DNA of 38,329 nt from a virus, in UHGV virus genome UHGV-1488451; one strand, written 5' to 3'. Position numbers and translations under genes: made by a program. The notes beneath the pieces are model-generated. The model saw only the letters and a program-made list of their open reading frames with translations. It had not been told where the DNA came from and did not search any database. Each line of letters starts with the position of its first letter. Position 1 is the stretch's first letter. Shown one piece after another: positions 1-38,329 of this stretch.

Positions 1-75
1 GGACACCCACGCGTCGCCGGACACCCACGCGTCGCCGAACACCCACGCGTCGCCGGACACCCACGCGTCGCCGGA
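1..75. repeat. 18-bp tandem repeat array (4 units plus partial), unit ggacacccacgcgtcgcc with A/G variants; encodes hexapeptide repeats on minus strand
   Basis: Direct reading: units at 1-18, 19-36, 37-54, 55-72; same array family as 38008-38277. Confidence 0.9.
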
Positions 76-645
76 CAAGTTCGATTCCTTTTCAATGAAA
101 CCGCCGAGTTCGCCTTTATCCACATATCGGCTTGGGATGTTCTCGGTGGCTTGAATACGGTACAGCGTGCGGCCAAAGACCGTGATTGTTTCGTCAGTGA
201 GGCGGTACTTTCTTTCGCTCATTATTCTTTCCTTTTTGGTGAATCTTTCGATGCATCGGTTGATGTCGTCGATGGTGATGTTTCCCCAGGGTTCGTTGAT
301 GTCCCTGTCAAGTTGCGGGGTTCGTGCGGGGAGTGTTCCTCCTAATGCGTATGGACGTTGGTTGTTTTTTGGGGTGAATTTCATCGGGTGCGGCATGTTG
401 GATGCGCTGGCATGGTTGCTGAAAGTTCCTGGGATGATTTGCAGCAGCCCGACCCCGTGTTCTACTGGGGCGTTTTGGTCTCGAATAGGCGCTATTGCGG
501 GGCCTGATTCGGCTTGGATTTCCTCGAGCACCCGTTTTATGTGGATTGCGTTTAGGATTCTTTGGCAAATGAGAGCTGTTGCTTTGATTTTGAGAAGTTG
601 TTGCATTGCTGTTAGCGGCTCAAAACTGCGGATGGTGTTAGGCAT
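1..645 (-). CDS. N-terminal portion of SLT-like (lytic transglycosylase) domain protein fused to hexapeptide repeats; 3' end runs off window start
   Basis: Manual minus-strand translation is open from 819 down to position 1; in-frame ATG at 645 (also 765, 606, 222). Contains IQAESG...EHGVGLLQIIPGTF, closely matching the SLT motif inside the tape measure protein. Not in ORF track because no stop lies within the window. Confidence 0.5.
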   Translation of the reverse strand, partial: MPNTIRSFEPLTAMQQLLKIKATALICQRILNAIHIKRVLEEIQAESGPAIAPIRDQNAPVEHGVGLLQIIPGTFSNHASASNMPHPMKFTPKNNQRPYALGGTLPARTPQLDRDINEPWGNITIDDINRCIERFTKKERIMSERKYRLTDETITVFGRTLYRIQATENIPSRYVDKGELGGFIEKESNLSGDAWVSGDAWVFGDAWVSGDAWVS

Positions 646-910
646 GCTCCGTGGATGGTGCCGATGTTGGGGTTGGGGGTGAGGGCGTTTCGAATGGGGC
701 GGGCATTTTCTTTGGTCTTTCTTTGGTAGTGGTTTTGATGGTTTGAGGCCCCCTGTGTTGTTCATCCACTGTGGGGGCTTTGTGGCGTGGCGCGGGGTTG
801 CACCGCGCTTTTGTGCTGCTCACGCCTTTGCTGTGTTCTTTCTCGTGTTCGTTCCCTCCGGTTTTTGTCCGGGTTCCTGGTGTCCTTGCCGATGCTTTGC
901 GAGAGCTTCG

Positions 911-1160: not shown

Positions 1161-1535
1161 ATGAGACACAAAGACTGGGTAGAAAACCTTATTGGCCCCG
1201 ACTCCATGCGCACAGCAGCAGCCAAACTTGGCCTATCCCCCGGCGCAGTGTCCCAGCAGATTAGCCGTGGAAGTTTGAAGCCAGACATGGTGATCGCGCT
1301 TTGCCGCGCTTATGGGCGGTCACCGATTGATGGGCTTGTAGAGACCGGGTTTCTTGAGCGGTTCGAGGCGGGCGCAGCTAGCCCTGCTTCGGCGCTTAGG
1401 GAGGCGACGAATCAGCAGATTCTTGGTGAGATTATGCGGCGTTCCGATGCTGATGCGGTGCGGCTATTTAGGGCTGAGGATGAGGATGTGGCGGTGTCGT
1501 CGCAGGTGAGGGCGGATGGTCCTTACAGTGATTGA
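1161..1535 (+). CDS. HTH DNA-binding protein, candidate immunity repressor/regulator
   Basis: 124 aa; HTH-like segment AAKLGLSPGAVSQQISRG; first gene of rightward arm next to palindromes. Confidence 0.5.
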   Translation: MRHKDWVENLIGPDSMRTAAAKLGLSPGAVSQQISRGSLKPDMVIALCRAYGRSPIDGLVETGFLERFEAGAASPASALREATNQQILGEIMRRSDADAVRLFRAEDEDVAVSSQVRADGPYSD

Positions 1536-3010: not shown

Positions 3011-4135
3011 ATGGCATCAATCAAACGATATGACACCGCCAAAGGAACAAAATGGCGCGTCCAATACCGCACCCCAGACGGCAAAAGCCGCACCAAAACC
3101 GGATTCCGCACCAAAAGCGAAGCCGAAAGATGGGTGGCCACACACACCACCTCCATCATCAATGGCACCTGGGTTGACCCCAACGCAGGCAACATAACCA
3201 TCCAGGCCCTCGGCACACGATGGATGGAAACCCGCACCCACCTGAAACCCTCAACAGCACGCGTCGAAGCCCTCGACTACAAAAACCACGTCCTCCCACA
3301 CTGGGGGCACCGGCGCATCAAAACTATCAAACCGTCGGAAGTGCAAGCCTGGGTGTCAGCCAGCGCCCAATCACCCTCAACCACCAGGCACCACCATGCG
3401 ATCTTGTCGAAGATTCTAGACATGGCCGTCCTCGACAACCTCATACCCGCGAACCCGGCTAAAAGCGTCACCCTGCCCCGCAAGAACAACCCAACAAAGG
3501 TGTACCTCACCATCAGCCAATTGAAGCGCCTAGCGGACGAGGCAACGGTTCGGGGTGAGCTGATCTGGCTGTTGGGAACCACTGGCCTTAGGTGGGGTGA
3601 GGCCGCTGGCTTGCAGGCGCAAGACTTGGACCCGCTGAACGGGCGCATCAGGGTGGCGAGGAACGCAGTAACGGTAGGGGGCGAGGTGGTTGTCGGAACC
3701 CCGAAAACTCATGAGCGGCGCACAGTGGCTTGCCCTGGGCATGTGATGGGGATGCTTGAAGATGCGGCACGTGGTAAGCCGCGCACCGGGTGGTTGTGGG
3801 AGTCGCCTGCGGGCGGGCCTATGCGGCTTCCGGGGAAGGGTTCTTTTTTTCATTCGGCGTTGGGGCGCGTGCGCGCCGAAGACCCGTCGTTTCCTTCGTT
3901 GACTATTCATGGTCTTAGGCATGTGGCAGCCGGACTTTTAGTTTCGGCGGGGGCGAATGTGAAGGTGGTGCAAAAGCAGCTTGGACACAAGTCTGCGGCT
4001 ATGACGTTGGATGTGTATGCGGAGTTGTTTGACGATGACTTGGATGCGGTGCGTGGGGCGTTGGATGCTTTGGTGGGTTCTTTGGGGAATGTCGTCAAAT
4101 TGTCGTCAAATCGGGGTTTTGGTGACGCGGTTTAG
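3011..4135 (+). CDS. int: Tyrosine integrase (phage integrase family)
   Basis: 374 aa; catalytic-domain motifs GLRWGEA, HGLRH, LGH...TLDVYAELF (R, H-x-x-R, H, Y); AAGGA before ATG. Confidence 0.9.
   Translation: MASIKRYDTAKGTKWRVQYRTPDGKSRTKTGFRTKSEAERWVATHTTSIINGTWVDPNAGNITIQALGTRWMETRTHLKPSTARVEALDYKNHVLPHWGHRRIKTIKPSEVQAWVSASAQSPSTTRHHHAILSKILDMAVLDNLIPANPAKSVTLPRKNNPTKVYLTISQLKRLADEATVRGELIWLLGTTGLRWGEAAGLQAQDLDPLNGRIRVARNAVTVGGEVVVGTPKTHERRTVACPGHVMGMLEDAARGKPRTGWLWESPAGGPMRLPGKGSFFHSALGRVRAEDPSFPSLTIHGLRHVAAGLLVSAGANVKVVQKQLGHKSAAMTLDVYAELFDDDLDAVRGALDALVGSLGNVVKLSSNRGFGDAV
4088..4110 (+). repeat. Direct repeat AATGTCGTCAAATTGTCGTCAAA (two TGTCGTCAAA half-units), copy 1; candidate integrase arm-type binding site
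   Basis: Exact 23-bp copy also at 4298-4320; the two copies flank the tRNA-like core. Confidence 0.45.
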
Positions 4136-27323: not shown

Positions 27324-28943
27324 CTAAACAATCAACAAATAATCATCATCACTATCATCTTCACCAGCGTAAATATCATCGAAATCAGGCTCCTCACCCC
27401 CAAAGAAATCCTCATCCGCATACGCCGAACGCCGCTCCTCAGGCTCATGCCCAAGCAACCACCACGCCACATTGCACGCCACCAAAGGCGAAACATCATT
27501 ACGACTACCCGACCTATCCCAAATGAACAGGTCACCAGCCTTCTTATCCTGCGCACCCTCAACAGCCAGATCAAGAACAGGCTGCGAACGATGCCGAAGC
27601 TCACCAGTCGCAATCGCATCAAAAAACCCAAGCACAGACGAAGACATATCCCCACCCTGCCAAGGCACCACCGTCAAACCAGCCTCCTCCAACAACGGAG
27701 CCAAACCAGCAGCCGGAGCACCCTTCACCTGCATTGCTACACGACCATCAAACCAATCGACGGCCCCAACACGAGCTGCGAACCACTCGGCAACCCATCT
27801 AAAACCGGCTCGTTGGGCGACGACTTCAACGTGCGTTCGCCCATCATCACGAACACCAGCGACCGCGACATAGGCGAACTTGCCGTCCACCGCGACATCA
27901 ACCGCCGCCGCCACAGGATTCCCCTCCGCAACACGGGAACCAGCATCAGCGCAAGCACCCCACACGTCAGCAGGAATCTTCCCCGGCTCCAGGGACTCCA
28001 CCCACACACACATTTTCTCAGTGCGGAAACCATCGGGATTCTTCGTCTCCTTCGCCTCAGCCAACAAATTCTTCAAAGTGATGCCGCCCCAACCCATCGA
28101 CGGGTTAGCCTGACGCAGCGCATCAACGTCCGTTATCTCCGCGTCCTGCGACGCTGACCACGAGAACAACGCCGTGGCCATGTCCTCAGTGTCCCCAAGG
28201 TTGATGCGCTCAACCGCTGAATCACGCAGGGATTTCAGCACAATCGAGCGGGCGTCACCAGCGTTGGAGAACCCCCACAATTGCGACTCTGGGCGCGCCG
28301 CAATGGTTGGCTCAATCGAGTTCCAGCCGTCCCACGTAAGCAGCTCACGCATCTCATCAATGAATGCCGTGTCAGCCGAAGCTGAACGCCCACCTTTACG
28401 GTCAGCAGTAGTCACCGACCATGTGGGCAAAGTGCCGAACACATCCAAGCGGCCAGGCACAGGAACCTTGCACAACTCAATCTGCTTGCTACCGTTCGTT
28501 TCCCGCATCCAAGCGCCGTTGAACTCGTTGTCCTTCGGCCTCGGGTCGTTCGGCAAGTACTCACGTAGCACCTCATTATGAGCGGCGATCTTAAACGCGT
28601 CTTTCAACGTGTCCTCAGCAACAGTAAGTTTCTGAGCTGCGGAAACAATCTCCGATGCGCCGAACACAAACAAACGCCACAAGCCGATCACAACCATCAG
28701 CGTTGTCTTGCCGTTCTGGCGGGCCACCTCAACTATGACGCGCTTAAACCGGAAGTCAGTGCCGTCGAGGTTCAGTTCCAGGCCGTGAATCAACAGCCAT
28801 TTTTGCCACGGGTACAGGCGAATACCTAGGAACTCCGCAAACTCAATGGCCTCAAACCCCTTCGACGTCTCCGGGGTTAGTGGGCGCAACGGCGGGGGAA
28901 ACAGGCGCGGCTGCTCGAAGCCCTTAACCTGCTCGACCACCAC
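27324..28943 (-). CDS. Terminase large subunit
   Basis: 539 aa; Walker A VARQNGKTT; acidic C-terminal tail. Confidence 0.9.
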   Translation of the reverse strand: MVVEQVKGFEQPRLFPPPLRPLTPETSKGFEAIEFAEFLGIRLYPWQKWLLIHGLELNLDGTDFRFKRVIVEVARQNGKTTLMVVIGLWRLFVFGASEIVSAAQKLTVAEDTLKDAFKIAAHNEVLREYLPNDPRPKDNEFNGAWMRETNGSKQIELCKVPVPGRLDVFGTLPTWSVTTADRKGGRSASADTAFIDEMRELLTWDGWNSIEPTIAARPESQLWGFSNAGDARSIVLKSLRDSAVERINLGDTEDMATALFSWSASQDAEITDVDALRQANPSMGWGGITLKNLLAEAKETKNPDGFRTEKMCVWVESLEPGKIPADVWGACADAGSRVAEGNPVAAAVDVAVDGKFAYVAVAGVRDDGRTHVEVVAQRAGFRWVAEWFAARVGAVDWFDGRVAMQVKGAPAAGLAPLLEEAGLTVVPWQGGDMSSSVLGFFDAIATGELRHRSQPVLDLAVEGAQDKKAGDLFIWDRSGSRNDVSPLVACNVAWWLLGHEPEERRSAYADEDFFGGEEPDFDDIYAGEDDSDDDYLLIV

Positions 28944-29232
28944 CGGCCGCCTTCATACGCTCCATCACCGAAACAACCGCCACAGGGCGGTCACGGTCCT
29001 CAGGAATTCCCCGCGCCTCCGGCGTGCACCCCAACGCCCCCAACGCCTTCAACAAATGAGGCCCCAAATACAACGCCTTTGTGCGGTCATACCCAGCATC
29101 AACAGGCACGAAATCAATCTGCCGAGCATACGACAGCGCCAGCTCCTGCAATGCCTTATCTGCACCGGTGACGTTCTCGCCACGCGCCTCAATTGAATCA
29201 AGTACAGCCTGTTCAAGCGGCCCAACAGTCAT
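28924..29232 (-). CDS. Putative terminase small subunit
   Basis: About 103 aa from ATG 29232 (GGAAGGAG upstream); overlaps start of large terminase; assignment by position only. Confidence 0.4.
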   Translation of the reverse strand: MTVGPLEQAVLDSIEARGENVTGADKALQELALSYARQIDFVPVDAGYDRTKALYLGPHLLKALGALGCTPEARGIPEDRDRPVAVVSVMERMKAAGGGRAG

Positions 29233-29364
29233 GATTAAAGCTCCTTCCAGAAACCAGGTCTTGCGCGCGCGATACCCCCAAAAACGAGTGGGGGGAGAGG
29301 ACAGGCCCACCCGGCTCAAATGTCCTGGTCAGGTGTGCTGGTGATTTGCTACCCCCTACCGTTG

Positions 29365-29649
29365 TTACCAGGTTTGGCTGGGTTGTCCGAGGGTTGGTTG
29401 GGGTGGTTGGTTGTGGCGTGCGCGGTTGCAGTTGGTGTGTGTTGGTTTGATGTTGTTGGGGTCGTTTTCGAGGTGTGGGTGTGTGCTTGTGGGGTGGATG
29501 TGGTCGAGGTCGCATGCGTTTGGGGTGTGTGGTGGTGCGGTGTAGTCGATTGGTTGGCCGCAGAGGTAGCAGGGGGTGTTGTTTTCTGCGTGTTGTTGGC
29601 GGAGTTGTTGGCGGAGTTTTTTGTTTGCGCGGGTTTCTTTGAATGGCAT
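29365..29649 (-). CDS. HNH endonuclease
   Basis: CYLCGQPIDY...CDLDHIHP...HLENDPNNIKPTHTNCN (two Cys pairs, H-N-H); adjacent to terminase genes. Confidence 0.8.
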   Translation of the reverse strand: MPFKETRANKKLRQQLRQQHAENNTPCYLCGQPIDYTAPPHTPNACDLDHIHPTSTHPHLENDPNNIKPTHTNCNRARHNQPPQPTLGQPSQTW

Positions 29650-29676
29650 GGGGTTTTGGGGGTTGATATGGGTAAA

Positions 29677-29700
29677 CCCCCATGCTTTTTGGCATGGGGG
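29677..29700 (-). terminator. Strong GC hairpin (CCCCCATGC / GCATGGGGG) upstream of HNH gene
   Basis: 9-bp perfect stem, 6-nt loop; only short T-runs flank it, so terminator versus attenuator role is unclear. Confidence 0.3.
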
Positions 29701-29740
29701 TTGTCTGCGACTGAGTTTAGCAGTGTGGTTGCCCGTTTTG

Positions 29741-30310
29741 TCAATGTGACAGTTTTTTATCTATGTCTGTTTGTGAGTATTTGAGTGTGCCGTCGAGGCT
29801 GTGGTGTGCTCTGATGTGTCCTCGTGCTCTCCAGTGGTGGATTTGTTTGCGGGTGATGTTGTGGCCTTGTTGCCATGCGTGGTCGATGGCTTGTTGGATG
29901 GTGAGCCATTGGCCGTGGGGGTTGATGGGTGGTTCGCGGTGGTGGCGTTGGGTGAGGTCTTGTTCGATGGTGCGTAGTCCTTGTTCGATGGTGTCGGGTT
30001 CGGGGTGGTGGTTGATGAGGTGGGTGTTGTGGCTGAGCCAGGTGCACCAGCGTGAGAGTGGTTGGTTGGCTGCGCTGGCTGGGAGGTGGATGTTTGCGTG
30101 TTTGAGGATTTGGTGGATGATGTCGCGGAGTTCGTCTTCGGTGGTGATTTTGTTTTCGAGTTGGGTGAGGTTGAGGGGTGGGCGTGGTCCGGGGGTGGTG
30201 TGGCCTCCTTCTTTGGGGATGGTGGAGTCGATGTGTGTGGGGTGGAGGTCGGTTTCGAGTTCGTGGGTGAGGGTGGCGAGGTTGGTGAGGATTTTGTTGA
30301 TGGTGATCAT
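29741..30310 (-). CDS. Hypothetical protein, possible DNA-binding
   Basis: 189 aa; strongly A+C-biased codons (T/H/N/Q/P-rich protein). Confidence 0.4.
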   Translation of the reverse strand: MITINKILTNLATLTHELETDLHPTHIDSTIPKEGGHTTPGPRPPLNLTQLENKITTEDELRDIIHQILKHANIHLPASAANQPLSRWCTWLSHNTHLINHHPEPDTIEQGLRTIEQDLTQRHHREPPINPHGQWLTIQQAIDHAWQQGHNITRKQIHHWRARGHIRAHHSLDGTLKYSQTDIDKKLSH

Positions 30311-30474
30311 GGTTTGGGTTCTTGGAGTTCTTTGGTGGCTTTGGTGGTGAGGATGATGGAGCCGTAGGTGTCGAAGGCTAGGTATCCGTGGTCGATGAGG
30401 ATGTTGGTCATGGTGTGGTTGATGCGTTTGCCGGAGGCGAAGCGTCGGAGGGCGTTGATGTGGTTGGGGGTCAT
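30307..30474 (-). CDS. Small hypothetical protein
   Basis: ATG at 30474 (MTPNHINALRRF...); the His-rich extension to 30558 in the ORF track is probably compositional artefact. Confidence 0.35.
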   Translation of the reverse strand: MTPNHINALRRFASGKRINHTMTNILIDHGYLAFDTYGSIILTTKATKELQEPKP

Positions 30475-30574
30475 TGGTTTGTGTCTTTCTTGGTGGTGAG
30501 GTGGGTGATTGTTCCGGGGTGGGTGAGGGTGCTTATGGCGGTGGTGATGATGATGCACGCGATGATGGTGAGGG

Positions 30575-31108
30575 TCATTGTTCGTCTTTCTGGATTTCGT
30601 ATCGTTCTTCTTGGTGGTCGCGTTCGAGCCTGTCTGCGCGTTCCCAGTCTGGGAGGGTGTCGTCGTTGGTGTCGTCGTGGGGGTAGGGGTGTGCCATGTG
30701 GGTTTCTTTCTGGGTGAGGTGGATGTGTGCGCCGGGTGTTTCGCCGGGGTGTGCGTAGCGTTTGTGGGTTATCCAGGTTGTGATTTGGCTGTCGTCGTTG
30801 ATTGCTCCTGATTGGGTGAGGGCGTCGCCGAGGGCGCGTTGTAGTTTGTCGAGGTCGGGGGTTTTGGTGTGTGGTTCGGTTTTGTTTTTGAGGCGTTTGG
30901 GGCGGGGGAAGATGAAGATTGCGGTGATGGTGATTGGTCCTTGGATTGGGGGTTTGTGGTTGTGGGTGAGGGTTGCGGTTTGGGTGAGGGCTTTGCGCCA
31001 GGCGGGTAGGTGTTTGCTGGATTCGATACTGCGGCCGCCGCCGATGTAGCGTTTGGAGCCTTGGGGTCTGGGGGTGCCTGGGGTGAAGAATGTGAGCGTT
31101 TGGGTCAT
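30575..31108 (-). CDS. rusA: RusA-like Holliday junction resolvase
   Basis: Motif TPDLDKLQRALGDALTQSGAINDDSQI...K matches the RusA Asp-rich catalytic core. Confidence 0.75.
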   Translation of the reverse strand: MTQTLTFFTPGTPRPQGSKRYIGGGRSIESSKHLPAWRKALTQTATLTHNHKPPIQGPITITAIFIFPRPKRLKNKTEPHTKTPDLDKLQRALGDALTQSGAINDDSQITTWITHKRYAHPGETPGAHIHLTQKETHMAHPYPHDDTNDDTLPDWERADRLERDHQEERYEIQKDEQ

Positions 31109-31238
31109 TGGAACATGCTTTCTATGTGGGGGTGGTGGTTTGTTTTGGGTTGGGGGTGGGTGTTATTTTCGCGCGTGAGGCTTGGGGCGGGTTGGTGGCG
31201 CCTGGTGGCCTGTTGGGCGGAGCGTGGTCACAACAGTC

Positions 31239-32426
31239 TCAAAACGGGGGTTTTGCGGCGTTGGAATTGCCGAACCATACACGACTACCCGCCGAGGGGT
31301 TTTCGGGCGTGTGAGGCGGCAATGAGGGCGGATTTGGGGCATTCTCGTTTCGTCTGGCCGCCCGGAGTTGAGCGTATTCCGGTGGGAGGTCCACCGGCTC
31401 GGGGGGTGTCCGATGGTCGCATTTGCGGGCTACGCTGCGGTTTTCCGGCGAATCCGGGTCGATTCCTCGGGTCGGGACCAGGACAAAACCCCGCTCGTCG
31501 CACCACGGGCAAGCGTCGATTTCGGCGCGTCGTGCCTGCTTGGCTTGGGTTTTCTGGTCCTGGAACCAGCGTCTGGCGGCTGCGCAGGCCCCGCAGGGTG
31601 GCACCTGGTCGCGTGGCAGCCCGGCGTGTTCGCGGCATCGGGGGTCATCCGGCGTGGACCAATCGGCGGGTGTGTCGCCGGTCACGGTTGGGGTGTTGGG
31701 GGGCGGCGCGTCAGCGGCCGCCGAACCCTGGTCGAAACTCGGGGCGGGGGCGTGTGCGCTTGCGCTCTCGCTCGGAAGATTTTCTCTCTTAAGCTCCCCT
31801 TTATTGGTATTGGTCGGGCGCAGGTCCGGGCGCGCGCGTCGCGCGCGAGGAGTGGACATGCGGGTGGCGTCCGGGGTGGACATTTCGGCGTTTTCGCTGG
31901 TAGAGGAAAAATCGCTCGACCTATTCGGATTCATTTCGTTTTCATTTCGATTTCGATTCGCGTTCGATTCGGATTCATTTCGATTTCGATTCGGATTCAT
32001 TTCGCGTTCGGATAGGTCGAGCCTCCCTGTTTCAGTATCGGCGTTGCAGCCCCTCCTGCGGGCCTTTGACTCGCGTTCAATACGGCGTCGATTCGAGCGT
32101 TGTTCGCGGGTCTGCTGATAGTCCCCCCAGTCCCTAAAAGTGAACACGATCACACCATTTTCATTGACTGATTGCGTCCACAACCCCGCATCAACAAGCG
32201 CCTGAATCTGAACCGCGCTCCCCCGCAAAGCCCGCACCTGCTGACGAGGAATCACCCCATCAGTCTCAAATTCAGCGCACCAACTCCCAGCCTTCGCCCA
32301 TAAACCCACCGCAGCATTAGGAAGGGAGGAAATCTTAGGATGCGCATGAAAACGGTCGTCAATCATGAACCAGCTCATTACGCACCGAGTCCAACATTCA
32401 AGCAGACAACACTGATTGACCTGCAC
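31239..32426 (-). CDS. Replication initiation (O-like) protein candidate with internal iteron-encoded low-complexity linker and C-terminal Cys cluster
   Basis: N-terminal folded-looking domain, central NPNRNRNESESNANRNRNENEMNPNR linker encoded by the tandem repeats, C-terminal CGAC...CPWC; start uncertain (32426 GTG, 32378 or 32366 ATG). Confidence 0.5.
   Translation of the reverse strand: MQVNQCCLLECWTRCVMSWFMIDDRFHAHPKISSLPNAAVGLWAKAGSWCAEFETDGVIPRQQVRALRGSAVQIQALVDAGLWTQSVNENGVIVFTFRDWGDYQQTREQRSNRRRIERESKARRRGCNADTETGRLDLSEREMNPNRNRNESESNANRNRNENEMNPNRSSDFSSTSENAEMSTPDATRMSTPRARRARPDLRPTNTNKGELKRENLPSESASAHAPAPSFDQGSAAADAPPPNTPTVTGDTPADWSTPDDPRCREHAGLPRDQVPPCGACAAARRWFQDQKTQAKQARRAEIDACPWCDERGFVLVPTRGIDPDSPENRSVARKCDHRTPPEPVDLPPEYAQLRAARRNENAPNPPSLPPHTPENPSAGSRVWFGNSNAAKPPF
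31914..32020. repeat. Iteron-like array: about 8 tandem copies of an 11-bp unit (nnTTCnnTTCG family) flanked by imperfect inverted repeats; candidate origin of replication
   Basis: Seen directly: GATTCATTTCG / TTTTCATTTCG / ATTTCGATTCG / CGTTCGATTCG ...; 11-bp period; flanks CTCGACCTATTCGGA and TTCGGATAGGTCGAG. Confidence 0.5.
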
Positions 32427-37481: not shown

Positions 37482-37727
37482 TTAGATGTTGACAAGATCG
37501 AACCACCCGACCAGGTAGTCTGAGTCGCCCATCATGGTTGCAATGCGGAGGGCGTCGGCGGCGGTGACGTATTTCCGGCCATGCCTAAAAAGCTCCAAAT
37601 CCGATACCTGGTATCCGAGTGTGGCCGCCAACCGTTCATCGGTGTTCAGGTTCAGCATGTGCGCAATGTTTTCTAGCGCGCCGCGCCGGAATCGGTATTT
37701 AGGCGCGGTCATTGTCATCACTGTCAT
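37482..37727 (-). CDS. Small HTH DNA-binding protein (Cro/XRE-like candidate)
   Basis: 81 aa; HTH-like segment RLAATLGYQVSDLELFRHGRKYVTAADALRIA. Confidence 0.5.
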   Translation of the reverse strand: MTVMTMTAPKYRFRRGALENIAHMLNLNTDERLAATLGYQVSDLELFRHGRKYVTAADALRIATMMGDSDYLVGWFDLVNI

Positions 37728-38329
37728 TGGCTTCTCCTTTGTCTTCCTTCTCTGGTTTCCATGATTCGGCGCGAATGGCGATCATGTCGTGGATTGCTTG
37801 GTATTCGGCTTGCCAGCGTTCTTGTGTGGCTTCGTCGTGGCGCTTCCAGTAGTTGGCGCGGCGTTCGGCGACGGCTTGCATCATTGTGGTTAGGGTGCCT
37901 TCCCAGCATCCGATGCAGACGAATATTTCATCGGTTCCGGTGTGCGCCGCAGTTACCCAGCGGCTTTCTACTCCTGCAGGGCCAGCAACGAAGATGTGTT
38001 GTTTTTGGAACACCTCCGCGTTGCCGGACACCCGCGCGTTGCCGGACACCCACGCGTTGCCGGACACCCGCGCGTTGCCGGACACCCACGCGTTGCCGGA
38101 CACCCGCGCGTCGCCGGACACCCACGCGTTGCCGGACACCCACGCGTCGCCGGACACCCACGCGTCGCCGAACACCCACGCGTCGCCGAACACCCGCGCG
38201 TCGCCGGACACCCACGCGTTGCCGGACACCCACGCGTCGCCGAACACCCGCGCGTCGCCGGACACCCACGCGTTGCCGGACAAGTTCGATTCCTTTTCAA
38301 TGAAACCGCCGAGTTCGCCTTTATCCACA
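37699..38329 (-). CDS. C-terminal portion of hexapeptide-repeat protein (about 15 repeats plus about 95-aa C-terminal domain); 5' end continues beyond window end
   Basis: ORF-track GTG at 38328 is an edge artefact; the frame remains open to the window edge and matches the N-terminal part at window start. Confidence 0.6.
   Translation of the reverse strand, partial: VDKGELGGFIEKESNLSGNAWVSGDARVFGDAWVSGNAWVSGDARVFGDAWVFGDAWVSGDAWVSGNAWVSGDARVSGNAWVSGNARVSGNAWVSGNARVSGNAEVFQKQHIFVAGPAGVESRWVTAAHTGTDEIFVCIGCWEGTLTTMMQAVAERRANYWKRHDEATQERWQAEYQAIHDMIAIRAESWKPEKEDKGEANDSDDNDRA
38008..38277. repeat. 18-bp tandem repeat array, about 15 units with A/G and C/T variants, encoding [W/R]V[S/F]G[D/N]A hexapeptides
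   Basis: Direct reading; protein NAWVSG DARVFG DAWVSG ... NARVSG. Confidence 0.9.

Follow-up and report, generated by a model that had tools for sequence, protein, structure and literature searches.

Contigs of circular replicons that are assembled with SPAdes or MEGAHIT carry a k-mer terminal overlap, in which one walk around a circular graph is written out as a line and the prefix equals the suffix over a block of length k. Completeness tools use this overlap as a 'DTR' signal. Terminal repeats are also common in phages, and a circular map is expected for phages with headful (pac) packaging. The sequence analyzed here is the whole stretch of 38,329 nucleotides of the viral genome UHGV-1488451 (further referred to as the window). 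Its ends match over 124 bases, very probably as a result of the de Bruijn graph closure of a circular-mapping phage at a coding VNTR, with both array alleles carried by the contig. As in the ordinary k-mer overlap, the contig would represent one walk around a circular graph, and its shared blocks equal k (55). Whereas prefix and suffix are usually the same, an alternative route of 69 nt through the array here lengthens the overlap to 124 nt with three mismatches. The array itself resembles the coding VNTRs of bacteria and phages, as it has an in-frame unit (18 nt) with a copy number that varies among near-identical genomes. Unlike in VNTRs that serve as on/off phase switches, the unit length is a multiple of 3 and the array can therefore not be such a switch. 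The terminal overlap is thus an ordinary assembly closure at a variable repeat, which is a known kind of feature, and its value is mainly practical.

At the level of the genome, the window resembles temperate Corynebacterium siphoviruses (the prophage-derived LGCM-V, phi673/phi674 and BFK20), with which it shares an HK97-type module, an integrase and RecE/RecT, but it differs from them in having no nucleotide-level relative among the deposited phages. It encodes a tyrosine integrase (3011-4135, plus strand) as a marker of a temperate lifestyle, with a downstream region that is intact and without host flank in all assemblies, an HTH repressor-like protein (1161-1535, plus strand) and a replication initiator (31239-32366, minus strand). 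RecE-like and RecT-like proteins, SSB, RusA, a holin and an endolysin are also encoded, together with the HK97-type module (portal PF04860, S78 protease and capsid PF05065) and a tape measure protein of 2171 aa. Because of this gene set, the window is a complete temperate siphovirus. There are no tRNA genes in the window and no matches to Rfam families. Megablast comparison of the complete window with 50,697 phage records yielded only trivial matches (a repeat hit in gp64 of Mycobacterium phage Boilgate and tape-measure fragments) and no nucleotide-level relative, and an exact-pattern scan for the unique flank gave none in IMG/VR or the GTDB species genomes. No close prophage was found in 185,579 species genomes. 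The best integrase in a scan of genomes has 60% identity (Corynebacterium sp. 13CS0277), and none of the 29 integrase loci has neighboring phage genes. The large terminase subunit (TerL) is 45-54% identical to that of Corynebacterium phages, and the G+C content of the window is 57%. We infer from these sequences that the host is likely an oral Corynebacterium. Human oral metagenomes contain the phage very frequently: an identical protein of the small terminase subunit (TerS) is encoded in 361 index blocks, mostly of human oral origin, and contigs of 20-50 kb are found in 219 of these blocks. None of the 361 blocks has a contig above 200 kb, so that no case of the phage linked to a chromosome was observed. 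GenBank already includes one of the phage proteins (DAV83705.1, a TPA entry named 'Caudoviricetes sp.'). In the accessible part of the literature on Corynebacterium matruchotii prophages, this phage was not seen described.

Closure of the genome map at the repeat array

In an end-to-end comparison, 121 of the 124 bases are identical between positions 1-124 and 38206-38329. The three mismatches, at positions 15 (C/T), 45 (A/G) and 69 (C/T), are all transitions, and the direct comparison thereby confirms what an initial annotation of the window had noted. When overlap lengths from 60 to 400 nt were tested, only 124 nt reached a mismatch of at most 10%. The final 47 nt of both copies (78-124 and 38283-38329) are non-repetitive and match exactly. 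The unique flank adjoining the array reads AAGTTCGATTCC, and the flank motif occurs at just two sites in the window (73 and 38278). Chance is excluded as the source of the end match because of this exact non-repeat identity and the restriction of the motif to these two sites. The same annotation had placed both ends inside one coding sequence. Indeed, a single minus-strand frame starts with an ATG at 222-220, runs off the window at position 1, comes in again at 38329 and ends at a stop codon at 37699. The three mismatches are all non-synonymous in this frame (D/N, W/R and D/N within G[DN]A[WRE]V[SF]), and the swapped residues are also used by other repeat units.

At least ten other assemblies read through the junction, with one intact gene each. 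It is crossed by contigs L001, L002 and L004, by six contigs of more diverged strains (L064-L069) and by the 38,220-bp contig that encodes protein P0002. On ERZ989053 k127_45831 (38,260 bp), ERZ28667145 scaffold_216 and ERZ988860 k127_5728, the sequence around window position 37976 is joined to 91-160 on one contig; between the left and right flanks there is one array only, and the sequence continues past position 124. Residues 3-146 of the joined protein align in one stretch to phrog_5070 across the junction (E = 1.6e-52). All adjacencies of the circle are seen contiguous in the window or in crossing contigs, and all but the junction are found once in the window. The junction is real and the map is circular, without support for a second gene copy, because other assemblies read straight across it with one intact gene. 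The window represents the complete genome of a phage with a circular map. A true second copy had been kept as a residual option in the annotation, that is, tandem or dispersed paralogues in one molecule with the contig ending in each of them. The three differences between the ends would fit such paralogues. However, the gene is represented at the start by its N-terminal 74 codons alone and at the end by its C-terminal 209 codons alone, the 81-aa gene and the HTH gene enclose just one gene in each crossing contig (at least ten, of 9-76 kb), and the other adjacencies of the circle each occur once in the window, which leaves two gene copies with hardly any probability. Nor do the ends resemble those of a prophage bounded by att sites: the window ends inside a phage gene, and phage genes lie on both sides of the integrase in all contigs. 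Most other contigs of this phage of about 38 kb begin or end inside the array, which is a systematic assembly break point for this phage.

The boundaries of the exact matches are informative. The longest prefix of the window that recurs elsewhere is exactly 55 nt (1-55 = 38134-38188, within the array), and the longest recurring suffix is likewise exactly 55 nt (38275-38329 = 70-124). The 56-mers at the prefix and suffix boundaries are unique and neither block can be extended. A simple single-path circle would show an exact prefix equal to the suffix; the contig has none of at least 20 nt, and an exact 55-nt identity between a start block and an end block is found twice. The window is the whole of contig NODE_83_length_38329_cov_8.3186 from ENA ERZ772978 (L010, 100% identity). 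We take the NODE_..._cov_ naming to be in SPAdes style, and the largest default k of metaSPAdes is 55. The value k = 55 is inferred for this contig from its naming and the 55-nt boundaries. Because the exact overlaps are 55-mers, the overlap is a closure of the de Bruijn graph rather than physical redundancy or a concatemer junction.

Both blocks close the circle, at different periods. The short allele closes at the first 55-mer (V1; 1-55 = 38134-38188) with a period of 38,133 bp, giving a circle with 11 units and an intact in-frame gene of 218 aa. The long allele closes at the second (V2; 38275-38329 = 70-124) with a period of 38,205 bp, 15 units and an equally intact in-frame gene of 242 aa. 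Short and long allele are 72 nt, or four units, apart. The assembly graph would be a circle that is broken only at the 18-nt array inside the early beta-solenoid gene, and two versions of the promoter-proximal end of the array would be present in the sample or, at a minimum, in its k = 55 graph. The contig would then walk from V1 to V2 by the short route (bases 1-124), from V2 through the whole genome back to V1, and from there to V2 again by the long route (38134-38329). It would open with the last 124 nt of the short allele and close with the corresponding 124 nt of the long allele, and these two allele ends, laid together, would differ at three unit-variant sites. In such a graph, the start copy of the overlap (1-124) would be one edge (69 + 55 nt) that connects a 55-mer inside the array to the first one shared with the unique flank. 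The end copy (38206-38329) has the same position in the gene but would comprise the last units of the longer allele. The evidence supports that bases 1-124 are the promoter-proximal end of a shorter array allele, with 1-69 belonging to an allele that is four units shorter and not to a noisy copy of the end. The two alleles would arise by slippage or unequal recombination between units. The annotation had proposed a circular or terminally redundant genome of about 38.2 kb, linearized inside the repeat array. Its circular map and its break in the array stand, whereas the 55-mer boundaries speak against physical terminal redundancy or a concatemer junction. Its attribution of the mismatches to repeat heterogeneity is supported as well, as the start carries the alternative allele.

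Both alleles are also found in other assemblies. The predicted short allele (the sequence up to 38188 joined to the sequence from 56) equals ERZ989053 k127_45831 over 533 nt with one SNP. The length of this contig (38,260 bp) is 38,133 + 127, the latter being the k of its assembler (MEGAHIT), which points to a closure by arithmetic only. The haplotype of the long-allele end (T, G and T at 15, 45 and 69) is contiguous with 11.4 kb of downstream sequence in L003, which within 1-124 differs from the window at these three positions alone. The same haplotype is contiguous with downstream unique sequence in L002 and L004, too.

An alternative is that the sample contains a single array allele and that the mismatches and the 69-nt start segment are noise from mis-assembly, sequencing or PCR slippage. 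This would be in line with the low coverage (cov_8.3 in the contig name), with the internal array repeats of 57-59 nt that make loops in a k = 55 graph and with the many assemblies that break at the array. Nonetheless, none of the 69 consecutive 56-mers in bases 1-124 is found in the long allele, so that at least two overlapping reads must support the start segment. Deriving the short allele from the long one takes a 72-nt deletion and at least one transition, which is beyond a one-unit deletion, and the short allele was assembled independently by MEGAHIT (ERZ989053). Moreover, V2 holds 47 nt of single-copy flank yet has two different predecessors, which implies two sequences among the reads. 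A real co-occurring variant is favored over noise because of these two predecessors and the more than one-unit deletion that the short allele needs, and a single allele with noise is unlikely. Both alleles would be truly present in the sampled population, as judged from this graph signature at a low k-mer coverage (8.3).

Alternatively, the virion DNA could physically carry the 124 bp as a direct terminal repeat, or a concatemer junction could have been sequenced. Many phages carry terminal repeats, and two contigs of about 76 kb in related strains are head-to-tail dimers (ERZ21615918 NODE_52_length_75825, L056/L065; ERZ28573930 scaffold_201, L061/L068, 76,258 bp). Their copies are 100% identical over the 6309 nt compared, with an intact solenoid gene (176 and 242 aa, respectively) at the middle junctions. 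Yet, a de Bruijn assembler yields such 100% identical dimers (6.3 kb) only if the two passes are distinguishable, most simply by two array alleles, and the simplest reading of the dimers is a two-route array situation that was traversed twice. The repeat in the window contains mismatches and no exact prefix of at least 20 nt that equals the suffix, and its perfectly matching stretches stop at 55-mer boundaries. It lies inside a gene and about 9 kb from terS, and other assemblies stop at different array positions or cross the junction. A physical repeat or concatemer junction is thus most improbable, and the window ends are not physical ends: the duplication is not part of the DNA molecule.

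For practical use, under the preferred reading of a graph closure at two alleles, the contig should be trimmed to either 125-38329 (38,205 bp, long allele) or 1-38133 (short allele), which restores one gene of 242 or 218 aa, respectively, across the junction, and be treated as a complete circular-mapping genome. Because of the mismatches between its ends, tools that require an exact terminal repeat would fail to recognize this contig as complete, and exact-repeat tests would likewise overlook many of its sibling contigs, hundreds of which break in the array. A co-occurring repeat-length variant leaves a recognizable trace, i.e., exact k-mer blocks at two different periods. The analysis also draws attention to a beta-solenoid gene of variable length in an oral phage of very high prevalence, with all of these features being of kinds that are already known.

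Length variation of the array

The array spans 38017-38282 on the minus strand and encodes G[DN]A[WRE]V[SF] hexapeptides. Tandem Repeats Finder reports 14.8 copies of 18 nt with 92% matches, or about 15 units if the last unit that runs into the flank is counted. Its short-allele version at the start of the window (1-77, minus strand) comprises 4.3 copies. Two internal repeats of the array are longer than k (38017-38075 = 38053-38111, 59 nt at an offset of 36; 38172-38228 = 38226-38282, 57 nt at an offset of 54), and the unit number of the long allele is therefore insecure.

Copy number differs among otherwise near-identical genomes, all of them short-read assemblies. The gene encodes 218, 200 and 206 aa in L001, L002 and L004, respectively, 248, 176, 164, 224, 242 and 218 aa in the diverged strains L064-L069, and 212 aa in the 38,220-bp contig of protein P0002. 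These sizes always follow 164+6n within a range of 164-248 aa, some of which may be collapse artefacts of short-read assembly. Sizes of 200, 206, 218 and 242 aa occur among genomes that are 99.66-99.97% identical to the window. The 212 aa of P0002 represent a fifth allele of the window's type, assigned from the protein; the identity comparison covers the genomes of the other four. Over 20 kb, the backbones of the window and L001 differ by about three SNPs and by no indel besides the 72-nt difference in the array.

One tentative possibility, rather improbable at present, is that the array evolves rapidly in length and differs even within one human mouth, and that the length of the solenoid (from 2-3 to about 16 hexapeptides) would serve to adjust an interaction with either the host or competing phages. 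As an equally speculative part of this reading, the solenoid gene would be expressed early and adjoin the immunity switch, in a phage that ranks among the commonest of oral actinobacteria. If true, the near-universal break at the array and the exact-dimer contigs would be footprints of standing heterogeneity.

The beta-solenoid protein

The solenoid gene is split by the window ends. Its 5' part (1-222, minus strand) comprises the ATG at 222-220, a 50-aa N-terminal domain and the first repeats, and is covered by the phrog_5070 alignment that continues across the junction. The 3' part (37699-38329, minus strand) comprises repeats and a C-terminal alpha/beta domain of about 100 aa up to the stop codon at 37699-37701, and corresponds to phrog_7964 and phrog_20532. 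The solenoid grows by one hexapeptide with each 18-nt unit. The joined protein scores 65.3 bits against the YdcK beta-solenoid repeat (Pfam PF18836; cut-off 30), and a phmmer search of the protein against YdcK in the PDB (2F9C) gives E = 9e-9. The structure was modelled on the 212-aa allele P0002, standing in for the junction-split protein of the window. The AlphaFold model (pLDDT 84.5) predicts an N-terminal beta domain, the solenoid and a C-terminal alpha/beta domain. Its best fold matches in the PDB are 2F9C/2PIG (E = 6e-4 for 2F9C), followed by hexapeptide acyltransferases, with low TM-scores of 0.27-0.38, as only the solenoid aligns. The model thus predicts a left-handed beta-helix fold. 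YdcK (PF18836; 2F9C/2PIG) is both the same solenoid repeat family and the best fold match; unlike YdcK, the phage protein is much shorter and has its own N-terminal beta domain (about 50 aa) and C-terminal alpha/beta domain (about 100 aa, phrog_20532). More than 2600 relatives of 210-270 aa, mostly unnamed, occur in phages of many phyla, none of them with an established function. A literature search for YdcK-type solenoids in phages returned nothing relevant.

Two other families were considered and rejected. The bactofilin family (PF04519), from which the database name 'polymer-forming cytoskeletal protein' is derived, scores 19.7 bits against a threshold of 27.9. For the hexapeptide-repeat acyltransferases (PF00132), the protein has no hit at E ≤ 0.01.

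Upstream of the ATG, the frame remains open and in phase (223-760, minus strand) and is possibly coding (P0001, P0123). It extends over 171-200 codons in the window and six diverged strains, with indels of 3, 18 and 24 nt between 223 and about 660. Variable sites favor third codon positions (41/34/62, p about 0.01). The gene calls of P0001 and GenBank DAV83705.1 (393 aa) fuse the extension to the solenoid protein, and homologues in other phages begin at an MSERK-type ATG. Based on these sequence features, the extension may belong to a long isoform or result from a recent fusion. Its residues from about 40 to 80 weakly resemble the transglycosylase motif of tape measure proteins (phrog_7025, E = 0.008).

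Packaging and other regions of the genome

The large and small terminase subunits are encoded on the minus strand at 27324-28943 and 28924-29232 (terS), respectively. These genes lie about 9 kb from the window ends, and packaging consequently starts at that distance from them. A possible physical genome end (cos) at 29312-29325 is marked by two contig starts: L023 and L024, from different samples, begin at 29312 and 29318, only 6 nt apart. These starts are located about 80 nt upstream of terS in strain-invariant sequence. The records of the nearest TerL relatives, which are Corynebacterium phages, start just upstream of the terminase genes. Defined physical ends, if any, are probably near 29.3 kb, with a weak hint of cos-type ends at 29312-29325. 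Alternatively, the phage may use headful (pac) packaging, in which case its virions would be circularly permuted and terminally redundant and the assembly circular for that reason. A circular map is what such phages would give, but pac packaging would not create an imperfect overlap of 124 nt, which the graph explains. The two invariant starts within 6 nt and the records of the TerL relatives rather suggest defined ends, and headful packaging is a possible but somewhat doubtful option.

Three further regions stand out by their sequence. The non-coding stretch at 763-1032, between the solenoid gene and the divergent HTH gene, varies in 13 of its 270 columns, versus 137 of 540 in the flanking 223-762. 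It is presumably the lysis-lysogeny switch or an early promoter region. Inside the replication-initiator gene, about ten imperfect 11-nt repeats of the ATTCGGATTCA / TTTCGATTTCG type are located at 31912-32032. An inverted repeat (TCGCTCGACCTAT / ATAGGTCGAGC) brackets the run, which resembles an origin of the iteron type situated in the gene of its own initiator. Finally, the strand composition of the region from about 29300 to 32000 is very strongly biased (plus-strand GC skew about +0.4, AT skew about -0.45), much more so than elsewhere in the genome. The region contains many short G/T-rich direct repeats of the GGGTGAGGG type, small ORFs are called on both of its strands, and its gene content is strain-variable (154- versus 115/118-aa ORFs).
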